This document shows, one piece after another, positions 9,153 through 15,098 of a DNA stretch of 64,000 nucleotides (the stretch's first letter is position 1; each line of letters opens with the position of its first letter). The notes under the pieces are model-generated. The model saw nothing but the letters and a program-made list of their open reading frames with translations, was not told the DNA's origin and ran no database searches. This DNA is from Nitrosopumilus sp. GTDB taxonomy: Archaea; Thermoproteota; Nitrososphaeria; Nitrososphaerales; Nitrosopumilaceae. The position numbers were made by a program, and so were the translations under genes. The DNA lies in assembly GCA_965207075.1 (NCBI GenBank), contig CBDBLO010000002.1, positions 608,001-672,000 of the forward strand. Reading direction: 5' to 3'.

Positions 9153-9981
9153 TTGGCGCCCCTCCTAATTATTGGAATATCCGCGCCCCTCGGCAGGCCC
9201 TTTAAAGCAAAACCCCGGATGAGGCCCGAGGCCGACGGCATACTCAGGAGGGTCGAGCGGTCCCACGCGGCGGGGTTCGACGAGACGAGCTGGAGCGACG
9301 GCGGCAGCCCCGCGTACGTGAACGCGGCGCAGTCAGGCGACTGCATCGCGGTAAGCATCGGCAGCAGCAGGGCCACCCTGATGCTGGATGCGATGGACGG
9401 GTTCCGCGGGGTTGCGACGACCGACGGGTACGGCGCGTACGACGGGTTCGGCGCGGACGGCAGGCACCAGGCGTGCTAGGCCCACCACCTCCGGGAGACG
9501 GGGCACCTGGCCAGAAAGTACGGCTGCGCCGTCCCGCCCGAAGTGAAGCGCGTCCGCCGCGAGCTGCACGAGGACCACCAGTCCGTATTCCACACGGCCA
9601 AACTGCTGGCCGCTCAGGGCGCGCACTCGCCGCGCCTGCGGCACGCGATGGACCGCGTGATGCAGGATATGATGGACGAATGCCGCCACAATGGAAGCAA
9701 CGATCCCGACATGCTCAAGGTGCTCGACAAGCTGCAGCGGCAGGCGCCGCGCATGTTTACATTCTTGGAGCACCCCGGCGTCGACCCCACGAACAACGCG
9801 AGCGAGAGGGCGCTGCGCTATACCGTGGTGTTCCGGAAGGTCATAGGGCAGACCAAGGGTGGCCCCCAAGCCATGAGGCGCCTGGCCGACTTTGCCACGT
9901 GCGTCCTCACGTGGCGGAGGCAGGGCAAGAGCGTGTACGAAGAGGTCGCCCGACTGATATAAGGGCCACGTGAACTCATAC
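9153..9981 (+). pseudogene. IS66-family transposase remnant (5'-truncated, internal amber stop) with right end
   Basis: DETSW, TDGYGAYD, QAC*AHHLRE (normally CWAH), PTNNASERALR; right end reads GTATGAGTTCAC on the minus strand. Confidence 0.88.
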
Positions 9982-10052
9982 GATCCGTCGATCAATAAGC
10001 TTTTCTGTGGTTGCCCACCATGAGGCGAAATTTTCAATGAGCGTTACTCTAG
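9981..10052 (-). mobile_element. Isolated left end of the IS630 element found at 11486 (inverted copy)
   Basis: 71/72 nt identical to the reverse complement of 11486-11557. Confidence 0.92.
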
Positions 10053-10121
10053 GAGTGAGATAAAGCCGTCAACCCGCGCAAGTCCGTGGTTGCCGCATTG
10101 CAGGTCCGAACCGCGCGGCCA

Positions 10122-10158
10122 AAAGGCACTCCAAATCTGGATAGACCTTCTTATATAA
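10122..10158 (+). promoter_or_regulatory. Promoter with TATA box and upstream palindrome, shared with 13552-13588
   Basis: AAAGGCACTCCAAATCTGGATAGACCTTCTTATATAA; TCCA-N4-TGGA palindrome. Confidence 0.7.
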
Positions 10159-10180
10159 AGCATGAATACAAGTCGGTGCG

Positions 10181-10918
10181 GTGATTGCAAAAACACAAAA
10201 AACGATTATTGAGAAGAACGTCCTTGCCATATTGTTCCTAGCTGCGGGATTCGTGTTCGCGTGTTCTGCTCCATATGTGATGGCCGGCGACGGGGACGAG
10301 GGTATAAGCAACTACCTCTGGAGCAAGGCCAGCTCGGACGGACACAGATCGATGCTGGACTGTCTGGACGCACCCCATGCTGACATATGTGACATACCAT
10401 ATGACTTGGCTTCCAACATAAACAACATAGCTGGCGACCTCAGCACGTCACAGATACGAACCGAGGCGTCCCATGCCGAATCCAACGTGAATGGCTTCAA
10501 CGTCTACATAGACGTGAGGGAGGCATCCTCGTCTCAATTCGACGTAAGGCCGTCCAACCTCGGATCCGGCCTCACAGCGACATACATGTACGAACAGCAT
10601 TGCACACACTTTTGGTGGCGGGGGTGGTGCACAGACAGTGACTCGTACTTTGTCGACTTTGACATAAAGGTCAACACCAACAACGCCTTCGATTTCGGCA
10701 CCGACGAATCTTGTGACGGGGAGCTCCCGACCAAGTGGGATCTAGAGAAGGTACTGGGACACGTGTTATTCCACATGTTCGGTTCGGAACATGCCACTTC
10801 TTCAGATAGCATAGTATACAAAGGAGGATACGTCTGCGATACTGGCAAGGTTCCGACATCACACGACAAATCCGCAATAGACAGAAAGTTCGGTCCAAGA
10901 GTGATGTGGGTTGACTGA
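10181..10918 (+). CDS. Secreted matrixin (M10 metzincin)-like protein lacking the catalytic Glu
   Basis: Signal peptide; WDLEKVLGHVLFHMFGSEH matches HExxHxxGxxH with E>V; SIVY at the Met-turn; PTSHDKSAIDRKFG resembles the terminal helix. Confidence 0.75.
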   Translation: MIAKTQKTIIEKNVLAILFLAAGFVFACSAPYVMAGDGDEGISNYLWSKASSDGHRSMLDCLDAPHADICDIPYDLASNINNIAGDLSTSQIRTEASHAESNVNGFNVYIDVREASSSQFDVRPSNLGSGLTATYMYEQHCTHFWWRGWCTDSDSYFVDFDIKVNTNNAFDFGTDESCDGELPTKWDLEKVLGHVLFHMFGSEHATSSDSIVYKGGYVCDTGKVPTSHDKSAIDRKFGPRVMWVD

Positions 10919-11489
10919 CAAGAAGAACGTCTTGCTTACCGTGGCGGCCGCCACCGCGGTACTTTCTGCTGTGCTCTATGGAGTGGGCCAGACGGGCGTC
11001 ACGGCCGAGAGGTTTGTGTGGGGACAGTACACCCCCTGGGACACTGAACGCATGTTCAAGCACTCTGATGCCGTCATACATGGCGCCGTCTTGAGCGCCG
11101 AAAAGGTGGTGCGCGAGGAGATGGAATACATCGACGACACTGACAAGGTGGAAAAGATTAGGAAGATGCCGTACCAGATACTGCAGATCAAGGTGAGCGA
11201 GTCCTTCAAGGGCGACTTAGACGGAACCGTGAAGGTCAGGGACAATCTAGACGCCATAGTGACTGAAAATGGCGAGAAGATACAGGTGAGGTACGACAAC
11301 TCTATTTCCTACGAAGGCGGTGAGGCAGGCATATTCTTCATCGATAAGATCGACGGAGAATACGTTCTAGATGGCCACTACGGGTTCTTTAAGCGCGACG
11401 ACACGTCGCTCAAGTCGGGTTTTCTGGGCGATGCCACCCCTGCGGACATAGAGAATGTAATACAAAATCTCTCTCAGCAGTACGACTAG
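10911..11489 (+). CDS. Exported TIMP/NTR-like OB-fold protein
   Basis: Signal anchor; MFKHSDAVIHGAV...YQILQIKVSESFKG resembles the TIMP N-domain; overlaps the upstream gene. Confidence 0.6.
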   Translation: MTDKKNVLLTVAAATAVLSAVLYGVGQTGVTAERFVWGQYTPWDTERMFKHSDAVIHGAVLSAEKVVREEMEYIDDTDKVEKIRKMPYQILQIKVSESFKGDLDGTVKVRDNLDAIVTENGEKIQVRYDNSISYEGGEAGIFFIDKIDGEYVLDGHYGFFKRDDTSLKSGFLGDATPADIENVIQNLSQQYD

Positions 11490-12488
11490 AGTAACGCTCA
11501 TTGAAAATTTCGCCTCATGATGGGCAACCACAGAAAAGCTTATTGATCGACGGATCGCCGAACCGTCCATGAACGAGAACAGCAGGAAGATCCGGGAGCT
11601 GAAGGAGGCCATGCGTGCAGAGAGGGACATCAGGATCCGCAACAGGATGATGGCGGTCCTGGGCGCGCTCAAGGGCCACTCTACAAGGACCGCATCTGAT
11701 TTTGCCGACGTGGACCAGCGAACGGCGCAACTGTGGGTTGCCCGGTTCAACGAGGGCGGCATCGGTGGCCTACGGGACGCTCCCGGGAGGGGCAGGGCTT
11801 CACGCGCCAAGTATGGGCGGATCAGGAGGCTTGCCGGCAGGCTTGCCGGCAGGAACATGCTCACCCCGAGAAAGCTGCGGAACTGGATACGCAGCAGGAT
11901 GCATGTCAGGCGCAGCCTGTGCAGCGTGCGCAGGATCCTGCGACACCTCGGGTTCTCATCCAAGAGGTCGACCACCCTGTACGCCTCGGCCGCCGACGAT
12001 GACACGGTAAGGCAGCGGCAGGCCGACGCCGCAGGCACAATACCGGGTGCAAAAAGGCGCGGCAGGAGGGGCAGGACCGTCGTGTTTGGCGCGCTTGCGG
12101 AGGACGGAACCGGATTGATGCGCAGTATGAAAGGTTTGACGGCCCGACGTTCGTAGGGTACCTCAGGGAGGTGCGCCGCAAGTGGGGCAGCGTCCTATTC
12201 GTAACGGACAACGCAAGCCAGCACAAGCACAGAGAGGTGAAAAAGTACCTGAAGGAACACGACGGGGTGGAGATCCTGTACCTGCCCACCGCGACGCCGA
12301 AGCTCAGCGCAGTCGAGTCCGTCTGGAGGGTTGCAAAATACATGCTTGCCGCCTCAGAACACTACGAGACGTGGGAGGATCTGACGCATCGGTGTCCGAG
12401 TATTTCAGGACGTGCTCAATCAGGCTTGACATATACAGATTTCTGCACCGCTGCGTATGAGGCGAAATTTTCAATGATCGTCACTCTT
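11488..12488 (+). mobile_element. IS630-family IS, transposase frameshifted and internally deleted
   Basis: TIRs AGAGTAACGCTCATTGAAAATTTCGCCTCAT / ATGAGGCGAAATTTTCAATGATCGTCACTCT; HTH LWVARFNEGG, DNASQH, LPTATPKLSAVESVW split across frames; CTAG target. Confidence 0.9.
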
Positions 12489-12763
12489 GTGGCTCCATGT
12501 CTCCTTGCCCGCCCGTGACTTTTTCTCCTCCCGGCGCCGCCGTCCCTGCAAATGCATATGCCGAGTCCACCTGTCCCGTGGTTTCTGTGTGTTGGCAAGT
12601 TCGCCTTTGTGCTTCGGTACGCGCGGCCCGTAAAATGCTGTATGCGCCCAGGCCAATTCCGGGTTCGTTGCCATGCATGCGCTTCATCTTGTAATTCTGG
12701 GCGCAAGATCAACTGGCCTGTCGCCGTACCGAGTATAAATAAAAAAGAAAAATGTGGCGGCTG

Positions 12764-13375
12764 TCATCTTTGGACCTTTAGTCTGACAGCGTCTCTGACT
12801 TCCGCTAGGTCTATCGGGTCGTGTCCTACCACCTTGTCCAACTCGGTGGTAACCGTGGTCTTGCCTGAGACTATTGGATAGTAGTCTGCAAAGCCTGACA
12901 CGTACAAGCGCCTGTCGTTTTCAATCAGAAAGACGCCCTTGTCTCCCAAATTGTAGTCGAACGCATACACATTCATGTAAACGGCCTTGTGGCCGTCACT
13001 CGTACCGACTTCCACCCATACTAAGCGGTCATATACCGTAATGGTTTTGGGGTCCAAACCGACATCGTCTGCCAGTTTTTCCAGTATGCGGATCTTTATC
13101 TCTTTCATCGGCACGCGGTCGGCCCTGACAAACTCGTCACCGTTCTCATCAACGCCAGCGATCTCCTCTGTGAAGAGCTTGACATCAAGGCCCACTATCT
13201 CACCTATAACTACCGCGCCAGCCTTGTCGACAGACTCGGCAAAGGTGAGGCCGGTGTCCCATTGCGTCTTATTGGACACCACGACGGCCGGATCCATTTC
13301 AGCTAGTATGTATGGCGTCGATGCTGCAGCAATTATTATTATTGCTGTCATCAGGCCAAACTTTTTGCCAGTCAT
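12764..13375 (-). CDS. Exported TIMP/NTR-like protein, paralog of 10911-11489
   Basis: MTGKK plus signal; KAGAVVIGEIV...MKEIKIRILE...YNLGDKGVFLI parallels SDAVIHGAV...YEGGEAGIFFI. Confidence 0.6.
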   Translation of the reverse strand: MTGKKFGLMTAIIIIAAASTPYILAEMDPAVVVSNKTQWDTGLTFAESVDKAGAVVIGEIVGLDVKLFTEEIAGVDENGDEFVRADRVPMKEIKIRILEKLADDVGLDPKTITVYDRLVWVEVGTSDGHKAVYMNVYAFDYNLGDKGVFLIENDRRLYVSGFADYYPIVSGKTTVTTELDKVVGHDPIDLAEVRDAVRLKVQR

Positions 13376-13530
13376 GTATATCGGCTCTCCAAATCTATTG
13401 TCCGCCTGAATGCGTATCGACACCAGTCAATACCCGCGCGGTGGTGTGCAAACGCAGGCATCATCCCGATCGTATCGGCCAACACAGACGCCGTGGCAGA
13501 AGATCTCAATTCTTCATCTTTTACGGTCAT
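13372..13530 (-). pseudogene. Internally deleted remnant of a second matrixin-like gene
   Basis: Signal-like start behind the shared promoter; ADNRFG just before the TIMP-like start resembles the AIDRKFG C-terminus. Confidence 0.4.
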
Positions 13531-13551
13531 TACACCCCCTTGCGCCCTACG

Positions 13552-13588
13552 TTATATAAGTAGATACATCCGTATCTGGAGTGCCTTT
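13552..13588 (-). promoter_or_regulatory. Paralogous promoter with TATA box
   Basis: Minus strand AAAGGCACTCCAGATACGGATGTATCTACTTATATAA. Confidence 0.7.
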
Positions 13589-13814
13589 CTACATACGTGG
13601 AACCCCTCCTTTCTTACGGTGGCCAGTGCCATCTTGGAAGTCTGGACTGACGTTGCCCCCGCGCATGTTGACACGGCAGGTACCTTGTATGATGCGACAA
13701 AAGTTGCGCGGACTGCCTAACTACAGATGAGCTCACATGCGGCATCCGCAGAAATGCAAGTATTGCCTGCAATTCCAATGATTTTTTATTACATGTACGC
13801 GGGATATTGTACGG

Positions 13815-15098
13815 ATGGCGAGACTGACATACAGGATCACGGTACTAGTGACTGCGCAGATCTTTCTGATCGTTACAAGCTTTTTAATCATGATCCATTT
13901 CGAGTCGCAGCTGAACCTTGCAGGAAACGTAGTAAATGTAGCCGGAGAGAACAGGGTGCTGACGATTCTGGTGCGCGATGAGCTCAGGGACAAGTTATTC
14001 CAAGAGGGCAGCCAGGCGCTCGACGGAAACCGAACGCTTGCGGCGCTAGACGCGCTGGAGTCAAACATACTCTTCCTGAAGGAGGGCGGAACATCGTCTG
14101 GGATAGAGATCAGCCCGCTCTCGCCGCGCTTTGAGGGCGACTGGAACCTGATATGGGACATGTTTGGGCAATACAGGGCCGAGGTTCTGGAGCGCCTCTC
14201 TACTGATAACACTGCCACTGCCGCATCGATCACCGGCATCGACACCATAAAGCACACCGGTGACAGGCTTGTCGCGCTCTCCGACGAGCTCACCGACAAG
14301 CTTAGCCACGACGTGGACGTGCTTTTATCCAACCTCATACGTCTCCAGGTGCTTCTTGGCATCACCAACGTAGCGGCGCATATCTTCCTGATCTTCCTGA
14401 TCTGGAGAGTATTTAGCAGGCATACCGCGGAGATGGTCAGGATGGGAAAGATTACCGCAGTGGGCGAGCTTGCAGTCGCGATGGCCCACGACATGAAGAC
14501 TCCTCTTGGAATCATACAGAACTCGACTTCCCTGATCAGACATCGCGGGGGCGATTCCGATGTAATCGGATCTACCATCGGCAGGATGGAGCGCGCCGTA
14601 AGGAGGATGTCGCACCAGATCGACGGCATAATGAACAGCGTCCGCAACGTCCCGCTCGTGACGTCACCGACGTCCGTGTCGGAGATGCTGGGCAGATCCG
14701 TCGCCTACGTGGACATACCAGATACCATAAGGATCAGCATGCCCAAGGACGACGCGCTCGTCACGTGCGATCCGGCAAAGATGGAGATGGTCTTTGCCAA
14801 TCTTTTGCTGAACGCGATCCAGGCAATAGGCGACGACTACGGATACGTAACTATCAGGCTGGCGGATGGTGAAACGGTGACGATAGAGTTTGAGAATTCG
14901 GGACCCCCGATTCCGGCAAGCCACATGGCGTCCCTCTTCGAGCCTCTATTTACCACCAAGCCGCAGGGCACCGGCTTGGGACTTGCCAGCTGCAAGAACA
15001 TCGTGGAGCAACACGGGGGAAGCATCAGCGCCAGCCGAGATCCGGTCGTGTTTACGCTGCGACTCCCGAAGGCCGGGACAGGCCGCGAGAGGGGGTGA
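13815..15098 (+). CDS. Membrane sensor histidine kinase with NarX/PilJ-like extracellular domain
   Basis: 2 TM; H-box AHDMKTPL; N-box NLLLNAIQA; FEPLFTTK; GTGLGL; VNVAGENR P-box-like motif. Confidence 0.92.
   Translation: MARLTYRITVLVTAQIFLIVTSFLIMIHFESQLNLAGNVVNVAGENRVLTILVRDELRDKLFQEGSQALDGNRTLAALDALESNILFLKEGGTSSGIEISPLSPRFEGDWNLIWDMFGQYRAEVLERLSTDNTATAASITGIDTIKHTGDRLVALSDELTDKLSHDVDVLLSNLIRLQVLLGITNVAAHIFLIFLIWRVFSRHTAEMVRMGKITAVGELAVAMAHDMKTPLGIIQNSTSLIRHRGGDSDVIGSTIGRMERAVRRMSHQIDGIMNSVRNVPLVTSPTSVSEMLGRSVAYVDIPDTIRISMPKDDALVTCDPAKMEMVFANLLLNAIQAIGDDYGYVTIRLADGETVTIEFENSGPPIPASHMASLFEPLFTTKPQGTGLGLASCKNIVEQHGGSISASRDPVVFTLRLPKAGTGRERG

Follow-up and report, generated by a model that had tools for sequence, protein, structure and literature searches.

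Could an archaeon encode its own counterpart of the partnership between matrix metalloproteinases (MMPs) and tissue inhibitors of metalloproteinases (TIMPs)? This question is raised by two adjacent genes in a 64,000-nucleotide (nt) stretch of the genome of Nitrosopumilus sp. (assembly GCA_965207075.1, contig CBDBLO010000002.1, positions 608,001 to 672,000), which is called the window here and to whose first letter all positions refer. The first gene, open reading frame 1 (ORF1), encodes a putative secreted, matrixin-like zinc protease in which the general-base Glu of the active site has been replaced by Val, and the second (ORF2) encodes a partner predicted to have the TIMP/NTR fold. An initial annotation had taken the two for a coupled MMP-like/TIMP-like module, and the protease for a catalytically dead decoy of use to a symbiont in animal extracellular matrix. 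Here, we propose, with a probability of about 0.6, that the pair is the archaeal counterpart of a prokaryotic metzincin plus TIMP-like cassette, present in the window as a degenerating copy in which the TIMP-fold protein alone is likely to be functional. The coordinates of all features are listed in Table 1.

The letters themselves agree with what had been reported of the two genes. ORF1 and ORF2 overlap by 8 nt, the translation of ORF1 contains HVLFHMFGSEH (the codon of V195 is GTG, at 10763-10765) and after it SIVY at amino acids (aa) 210-213, and both strings that the initial annotation had quoted from ORF2 are located there, at aa 48-66 and aa 88-101. Each protein starts with a hydrophobic helix in the AlphaFold models (aa 2-28 of ORF1 and aa 4-27 of ORF2). 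Positions 10040-11500 are covered with no differences by Logan contigs from runs of two studies (X1; X2 and X5), one of which runs is possibly the source of the window itself; X6 contigs covered short parts only. With the contigs of two studies identical here, an assembly error is not the origin of the Val codon. The features also exceed chance, because each ORF has a conserved family and the genes are adjacent in other genomes.

How constant is this association? The protease profile was compared with 301 Nitrosopumilaceae genomes and matched nine of them, six strongly (E <= 4e-18) and three weakly, over 36-41 residues around the zinc motif inside frames of 380-455 aa. All six strong-match genomes (that of the window, G033, G047, G177, G122 and G274) have the partner gene immediately downstream on the same strand, and the metagenome contig L025 has protease and partner adjacent but divergent. 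The same-genus genomes G122 and G274 carry proteases that are broken by stop codons next to intact partners, so that loss of the protease is recurrent. Orphan partners occur in G006 and, as a paralog of ORF2, in the window; the genome to which the window belongs (2.23 Mb in two contigs) has one protease and two partners. Based on the broken proteases and the orphans, the partner repeatedly outlives the protease.

ORF1 appears, from its relatives, to belong to a small and divergent matrixin-like family of the Nitrosopumilaceae. A search of 5.8 billion proteins returned eight homologs with 42-77% identity, the nearest being about 23% diverged from ORF1, and further relatives came from a profile search (three) and from genome and metagenome scans. 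Peptidase_M10 (PF00413) is matched by all 12 members of the protease alignment, with a best E of 2.5e-5, and the relative on L025 exceeds the gathering score of that family (29.6 vs 24 bits). Matrixins or fragilysin make up 44 of the 46 weak matches of the protease profile among PDB sequences. The nearest language-model clusters in the Atlas (score 0.95), in which 95-100% of the members have Peptidase_M10, consist of small prokaryotic ‘matrixin domain’ proteins, one Nitrososphaerota cluster included. The family has its own peculiarities. Met is absent from the 9-10 residues after the third His in all members read, which have SIVY, SITY, SIVF, DLRF and similar strings there; this place is taken to be that of the Met-turn, by analogy with matrixin sequences. 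Neither a long pro-region nor a cysteine-switch motif could be read in the translation of ORF1. The NCBIfam scan gave sub-threshold noise only, and the top two PDB matches of the protease profile, a designed protein, were read as chance.

The partner can be placed by its predicted fold. Nine close homologs of ORF2 were found, and when 1.84 billion representatives were searched exhaustively with the family profile, 42 matches had E <= 0.001; there is no Pfam family for ORF2 itself. The AlphaFold model from a 33-sequence alignment has a predicted local distance difference test score (pLDDT) of 86.9 and a predicted template modelling score of 0.76. According to this model, the N-terminal helix, by which ORF2 is predicted to be anchored in the membrane, is followed by a strand in the linker (aa 30-36) and, from aa 38 to aa 192, by an OB domain of NTR-like type, with aa 28-37 between helix and domain. 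Foldseek ranks agrin NtA, TIMP-2 and TIMP-1 highest (E 1.9e-4 to 2e-3, probability 1.00). In VIA-align, residues 38-192 superpose on chain positions 1-119 of N-TIMP-3 with Z 11.5 and a root-mean-square deviation of 2.6 Å (116/121 residues), and on N-TIMP-1 with Z 11.3, the deviation over both being 2.6-3.0 Å for 116 residues. The identity to TIMPs in structural alignments is 14-18%. In a search independent of Foldseek, NTR modules take all of the top 12 places among 48,161 chains, and generic OB folds reach Z 6.8 at most. Agrin NtA, the NTR domain of PCOLCE, complement C345C, meteorin and hookworm AceES-2 share the OB-type fold with ORF2 (Z 7.9-10.3), but these proteins come from eukaryotes, contain disulfide bonds and for the most part do not inhibit proteases. 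By language model, ORF2 lies nearest to clusters of Bacillota ‘cell surface proteins’ of about 200 aa without a Pfam family (0.96-0.97), and the nearest Atlas clusters that bear a family are TIMP, NtA or NTR (0.79-0.85). Thus, an NTR-type OB (TIMP/NTR) fold of ORF2 is well supported by the models.

Some members of both families depart from the common layout. P0063 is a second type of degenerate protease, in which the first zinc-binding His has become Ser (SEFTH) with the Glu retained. The protease relative on L025 (524-1855, plus strand; 443 aa) carries a C-terminal plastocyanin/cupredoxin-like copper domain, and so does the 303-aa partner relative P0028, which hints that the cassette is tied to the copper proteins of ammonia oxidisers. 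In the partner of G006 (L017 1474-2397, minus strand) and in P0029, the usual anchor is preceded by some 100 residues that form an additional multi-helix membrane region at the N-terminus.

Would the two proteins bind each other? Three runs of complex prediction scored 0.88, 0.87 and 0.87 vs 0.01 for the best control; of 157 solved complexes, 116 attained this mark, as did 2 of 215 mismatched pairs. At least 92% of the contacts are common to the runs, and pLDDT is at least 89 for the partner and 77-78 for the protease. The predicted interface joins residues 128-142, H194, V195, H198, H204 and 215-219 of the protease with aa 30-42 and several loops of the partner, the closest pairs being formed by protease 131-134 and partner 38-41. 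G38 of ORF2 aligns with TIMP residue 1, and the neighbouring Q39 is near-invariant in the family; G37W is private to the window genome. This interface presumably corresponds to the binding mode of TIMPs. The interface envisaged by the initial annotation is predicted with confidence, but many MMP-TIMP complexes have already been solved, so that the score may reflect likeness to them rather than independent evidence. Together with the Pfam matches of the protease alignment and the superposition on the two N-TIMPs, the margin over the controls supports the proposal of a coupled MMP-like/TIMP-like module.

Then, what has happened to the protease in the window? The Glu of HExxH is retained in all of the 14 other members (P0002-P0009, P0061, which is the L005 protein, P0062, P0063, and the L006, L018 and L025 proteins), and 13 of them have the full three-His motif, the exception being P0063. 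The catalytic Glu of the consensus HExxHxxGxxH is lost in window ORF1 alone, one member out of 15, and E195V is therefore private to the window genome. At sites that are invariant in the eight close homologs, ORF1 has five private changes (H37D, R49K, N98H, H156Y and E195V) vs 0-4 in P0002-P0008, and H156Y removes another near-invariant His. Relative-rate tests against the sister P0002 gave 24-27 vs 9 private changes with four outgroups (p 0.003-0.009) and 21 vs 10 with the outgroup P0008 (p 0.048); the tests of the partner showed no difference in 10 out of 10. The window protease evolves about 2.5-3 times faster than its sister. The junction of the two genes has also changed: in place of the stop codon TAA and the start codon ATG of G033, the window has TGG and TTG, and as a result ORF1 is three codons longer and ORF2 starts at TTG. 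Catalysis by zincins is abolished when the Glu of HExxH is replaced. ORF1 of the window has most likely been inactivated and is decaying, in a family that is otherwise catalytic.

Among the systems compared, the closest known one is Mtz-Tim of Listeria and other Firmicutes, which is likened here from its published description (Boichis et al., 2021; PMC8235301); all statements on it refer to the part of that article that deals with the pair. In Listeria monocytogenes (LMRG_00713/00714), the gene of a secreted metzincin is followed by that of a TIMP-like lipoprotein. The two genes are described as always paired across Gram-positive bacteria, with genes of phages or transposases as neighbours. 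Tim, which is anchored in the membrane, is cut by Mtz some 50 residues after its N-terminus, so that a TIMP-like fragment is freed; the E136A mutant of Mtz does not make this cut, and the system acts on the envelope of the producer itself (PMC8235301). The archaeal cassette likewise has the gene of a small secreted HExxHxxGxxH metzincin directly followed by, and consistently paired with, that of a protein with TIMP-like fold, and its partner is N-terminally tethered to the membrane (a prediction here), with a linker ahead of the TIMP-like domain. Both are associated with mobile elements, that is, prophages and transposases in Listeria and insertion sequence (IS) elements in the archaeal cassette, and the nearest language-model clusters of both window proteins are commonest in Bacillota. 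However, the one belongs to Firmicutes and is anchored by a lipobox, whereas the other belongs to Archaea and is anchored by a predicted transmembrane helix; furthermore, the archaeal protease family has no Met-turn Met, and the window copy is apparently dead. No link between the two at the level of sequence or of phage families was found in the phage records and PHROGs families that were searched.

The animal MMP/TIMP pair (PF00413 and PF00965; in MEROPS, M10A and I35) shares the matrixin-like domain with the archaeal one, both N-TIMP-3 and N-TIMP-1 can be superposed on the model of the partner, and the predicted complex sets the N-terminal ridge of the partner on the catalytic His. It differs in that ORF2 has no Cys1, disulfides, TIMP C-terminal domain or Pfam TIMP match, in that ORF1 lacks both a cysteine-switch prodomain and the Met of the Met-turn, and in that the archaeal genes are co-encoded in one operon. 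In potempin A-karilysin and sermetstatin-snapalysin, the inhibitor is encoded beside the protease. These two (PDB 8b2q and 4hx3) as well as AprA-AprI or serralysin-Inh, which part of PMC8235301 mentions, also combine a secreted metzincin with a co-encoded protein that occupies its cleft, but the folds of the inhibitors are not NTR/TIMP-like.

Based on these comparisons, a mechanism could be suggested. ORF1 would be a small secreted matrixin-like zinc endopeptidase, and ORF2, translationally coupled to it, would have its N-terminal helix in the membrane and expose an OB domain of the TIMP/NTR type on the outside. Where the cassette is intact, aa 30-42 of ORF2, around Q39, would occupy the cleft of the protease like a substrate or an inhibitor, and the protease, by analogy with Listeria Mtz-Tim, may cut the linker just before Q39. 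After such a cut, the TIMP-like domain would be released, its new N-terminus coinciding with TIMP residue 1, and might then block the protease or act on the cell surface or envelope. In the window, the E195V protease, having no catalytic base, is drifting and would at most be able to bind its conserved partner, and the cassette would be a degenerating copy stranded between insertion sequences.

Other explanations have been offered or can be imagined for a protease without its Glu. Along the lines of the initial annotation, it might be a pseudo-enzyme kept by selection, which binds zinc and ligands and has a joint task with the TIMP-like protein, such as that of a decoy or an adhesin in the matrix of a host. 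In favour of this, ORF1 has an intact frame although it has diverged from its closest relative, it retains the three His and the pattern of Cys, its sequence is identical in the contigs of two studies, an interface with ORF2 is still predicted confidently, and the private G37W in the cleft-binding segment of the partner could be a co-adaptation. Nevertheless, we regard this as unlikely, since the Glu is substituted in one of 15 members only and E195V comes with H156Y, an accelerated rate of change, the loss of the stop codon and a poorer start codon of ORF2. Moreover, loss of the protease has recurred in G122 and G274 beside intact partners, and the cassette occurs in low-GC (31-36%) relatives also. 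As the initial annotation itself held that homologs with the Glu would make this copy a simply decayed one, and 14 out of 14 have it, the decoy is not supported by its own yardstick; its role for a symbiont in animal matrix is not supported by the marks of relaxed constraint, nor by the closest studied system, which works on the envelope of its own producer (PMC8235301, in the part on the pair). A protease that is still active, with another residue as general base, is highly improbable. It would account for the intact frame and the retained zinc ligands and for nothing further, and against it stand the established effect of replacing this Glu in zincins and its conservation in all 14 relatives. 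In Listeria, too, cleavage of Tim was lost in Mtz E136A, as stated in the same part of PMC8235301.

Is the partner an inhibitor at all? ORF2 may instead be a substrate or effector dedicated to the protease, the role proposed for Tim of Listeria, or else a membrane dock or a folding helper, a reading that we hold to be possible though not probable. If the TIMP-like fold served to bind targets on the cell surface, the survival of partners without a working protease would be explained, and such partners persist alone or next to a broken protease in the window paralog, G006, G122 and G274. Judging by the titles of their entries, NTR modules such as NtA, PCOLCE NTR and complement C345C differ in the ligands that they bind. 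Additional domains, for example cupredoxin, are found at the C-terminus of some partners, and in the part of PMC8235301 on Listeria the phenotypes required cleavage of Tim by active Mtz. On the other hand, a segment of the partner is predicted to run across the catalytic His, as in TIMPs, and the best structural matches are inhibitory N-TIMP domains from protease complexes; both observations are compatible with a substrate role as well.

The preferred reading, an archaeal metzincin plus TIMP-like cassette with a decaying protease, has to be weighed against several observations. For ORF1, the Pfam score of the window protein (16.1 bits, E 0.011) is below the Peptidase_M10 gathering score of 24, and its own AlphaFold model is poor (pLDDT 45.2). 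The expectation of the initial annotation that Foldseek would recognise both folds held for ORF2, which matches TIMP and NtA, but less so for ORF1: nearly all of its top rows are catalytic domains of MMPs, joined by snapalysin, karilysin and fragilysin, yet the matches are weak (best E 8.4e-3, none <= 0.001). For ORF2, none of 33 members matches TIMP (PF00965), NTR (PF01759, PF03146) or NtA in Pfam at E <= 1, and TIMP is absent from the matches of the partner in the PDB profile search. The initial annotation had noted that Cys1, the mature N-terminal residue of TIMPs that chelates the zinc through its amino and carbonyl groups, is missing; ORF2 in fact contains no Cys whatever, hence no disulfides, where the TIMP N-domain has a framework of six Cys. 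With neither Cys1 nor disulfides nor a profile match, membership of ORF2 in the TIMP family is not supported by its sequence, and with 37 residues before the domain and no Cys1, the classical TIMP mechanism would require a hypothetical cleavage. As to the decay, the relative-rate tests with the outgroups P0007 and P0009 are not significant, and ORF1 is a full open frame that retains the three zinc-binding His and the six Cys of its close homologs, so it may have been inactivated only recently or have been retained for binding. Finally, a link to phage families was not found by tblastn or in IMG/VR, BFVD and PHROGs.

Table 1. Coordinates of the gene pair and of the features around it in the window.
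Feature	Position	Strand	Remarks
ORF1, matrixin-like (Peptidase_M10-like) putative secreted zinc protease	10181-10918	+	GTG start, 245 aa; carries E195V and H156Y
Zinc-binding motif HVLFHMFGSEH in ORF1 (aa 194-204)	10760-10792	+	three His retained, general-base Glu replaced by Val
ORF2, predicted TIMP/NTR-fold partner	10911-11489	+	TTG start, 192 aa, zero Cys
ORF2 aa 30-42, linker and GQYTP ridge	10998-11036	+	predicted in the active-site cleft of the protease
Promoter-like element, 37 nt	10122-10158	+	from inverted-repeat comparison; ends in TATA-like TTATATAA at 10151-10158
Second copy of the 37-nt promoter-like element	13552-13588	-	81% similar; upstream of the orphan ORF2 paralog
Orphan paralog of ORF2	12764-13423	-	26% identity, E 1e-5; start matching the homologs probably ATG at about 13375
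Solo 72-nt end of IS630-like element	9981-10052		99% complementary to 11486-11557; left boundary of the cassette
IS630-like element	11485-12490	+	34-nt terminal inverted repeats; split transposase: helix-turn-helix (HTH) 11569-12156, DDE_3 12171-12518
IS66-family transposase fragment, left of the cassette	9543-9962	+	PF03050, E 1.1e-10

The cassette is associated with mobile elements, both in the window and elsewhere. In the window (Table 1), it spans 10053-11485 and is bracketed by the two copies of the 72-nt inverted repeat (9981-10052 and 11486-11557, 99%), and the IS630-like element directly abuts the stop codon of ORF2, at a TA that is read as its target site. The sequence of this element has 22 matches in the genome. 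In G177, two copies (L006 and L012) of a 2.4-kb unit with the whole cassette are 99.7% identical and about 830 kb apart, and the partner in G006 adjoins an IS630-type transposase. The guanine-plus-cytosine (GC) content is 0.52 over 10001-11000 vs 0.57-0.64 on the flanks, and the cassette loci of relatives are of low GC (31-36%).

Further observations concern the neighbourhood. The IS630-like copy in the window is apparently short by about 100 bp internally compared with other copies in the genome. The window is mostly of 55-65% GC vs 33-36% for the cassette loci L006, L016 and L018 of genomes assigned to the same genus, an unusually wide range for one genus. The 37-nt element, whose TATA-like TTATATAA lies 23 nt upstream of the start of ORF1, may act as a promoter, and its presence upstream of both the cassette and the orphan paralog suggests a site for a common regulator. 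No protease remnant was seen beside the orphan paralog when 13370-13760 of the minus strand was read in three frames; the divergent neighbour of this paralog is a histidine kinase gene (HisKA and HATPase_c; 13815-15098, plus strand). Directly upstream of the cassette in two other lineages there is a small winged-helix-like gene of about 100 aa (L005/L023 2575-2901 and L016 2832-3128, 30% identical between loci), with no counterpart in the window or the remaining cassette loci.

Phage collections were searched as well. For ORF2, tblastn against 50,697 phage records gave only four Listeria ‘phage’ contigs at E = 1, which are chance matches because they fall inside an ABC-2 type permease ORF. The intact protease homolog P0003 had only two matches at E = 5 in the same records, to Streptomyces phage Joe. 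The IMG/VR scan with the protease alignment yielded eight pattern matches with no relative among them, BFVD gave no match at E <= 0.001, and no PHROGs family was matched by more than one member of either the protease or the partner alignment.

What does such a pair mean in view of what has been published? In the reviews searched, TIMPs are presented as a metazoan or eukaryotic family: one does not mention prokaryotes (PMC9409782), and the abstract of another calls TIMPs a eukaryotic family (PMC4860685). A study from 2025 on the transfer of MMP genes lists sparse MMPs of Nitrosopumilales and never mentions TIMPs (PMC12587646). The authors of the Mtz-Tim study were, in the part that deals with this point, aware of no earlier bacterial TIMP-like protein (PMC8235301). 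Our literature searches found no published description of an archaeal metzincin/TIMP-like pair, and the only prokaryotic one that they found in print is that of Listeria and other Firmicutes, as described in part of the same article. The window pair is a variant, in Archaea, of a prokaryotic kind that has been described only recently.

With a family of predicted TIMP-type fold that is genetically locked to a matrixin-like protease in Archaea, the pairing reaches a second domain of life. The dead protease of the window is of lesser interest in itself, but together with the broken copies of G122 and G274 it illustrates how the partner outlives the protease. The ORF2 family also offers a Cys-free model of an NTR domain that engages a metzincin, and the origin of the MMP-TIMP partnership becomes testable. 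It is conceivable, though quite unlikely in our estimation, that matrixin plus NTR/TIMP cassettes are old, mobile and prokaryotic, shared by Archaea and Firmicutes, that the partner is an inhibitor activated by the protease, and that the animal MMP-TIMP pair descended from such cassettes by gene transfer. If so, TIMPs would be no metazoan innovation, and the cut in the linker would be what creates the TIMP-like N-terminus.

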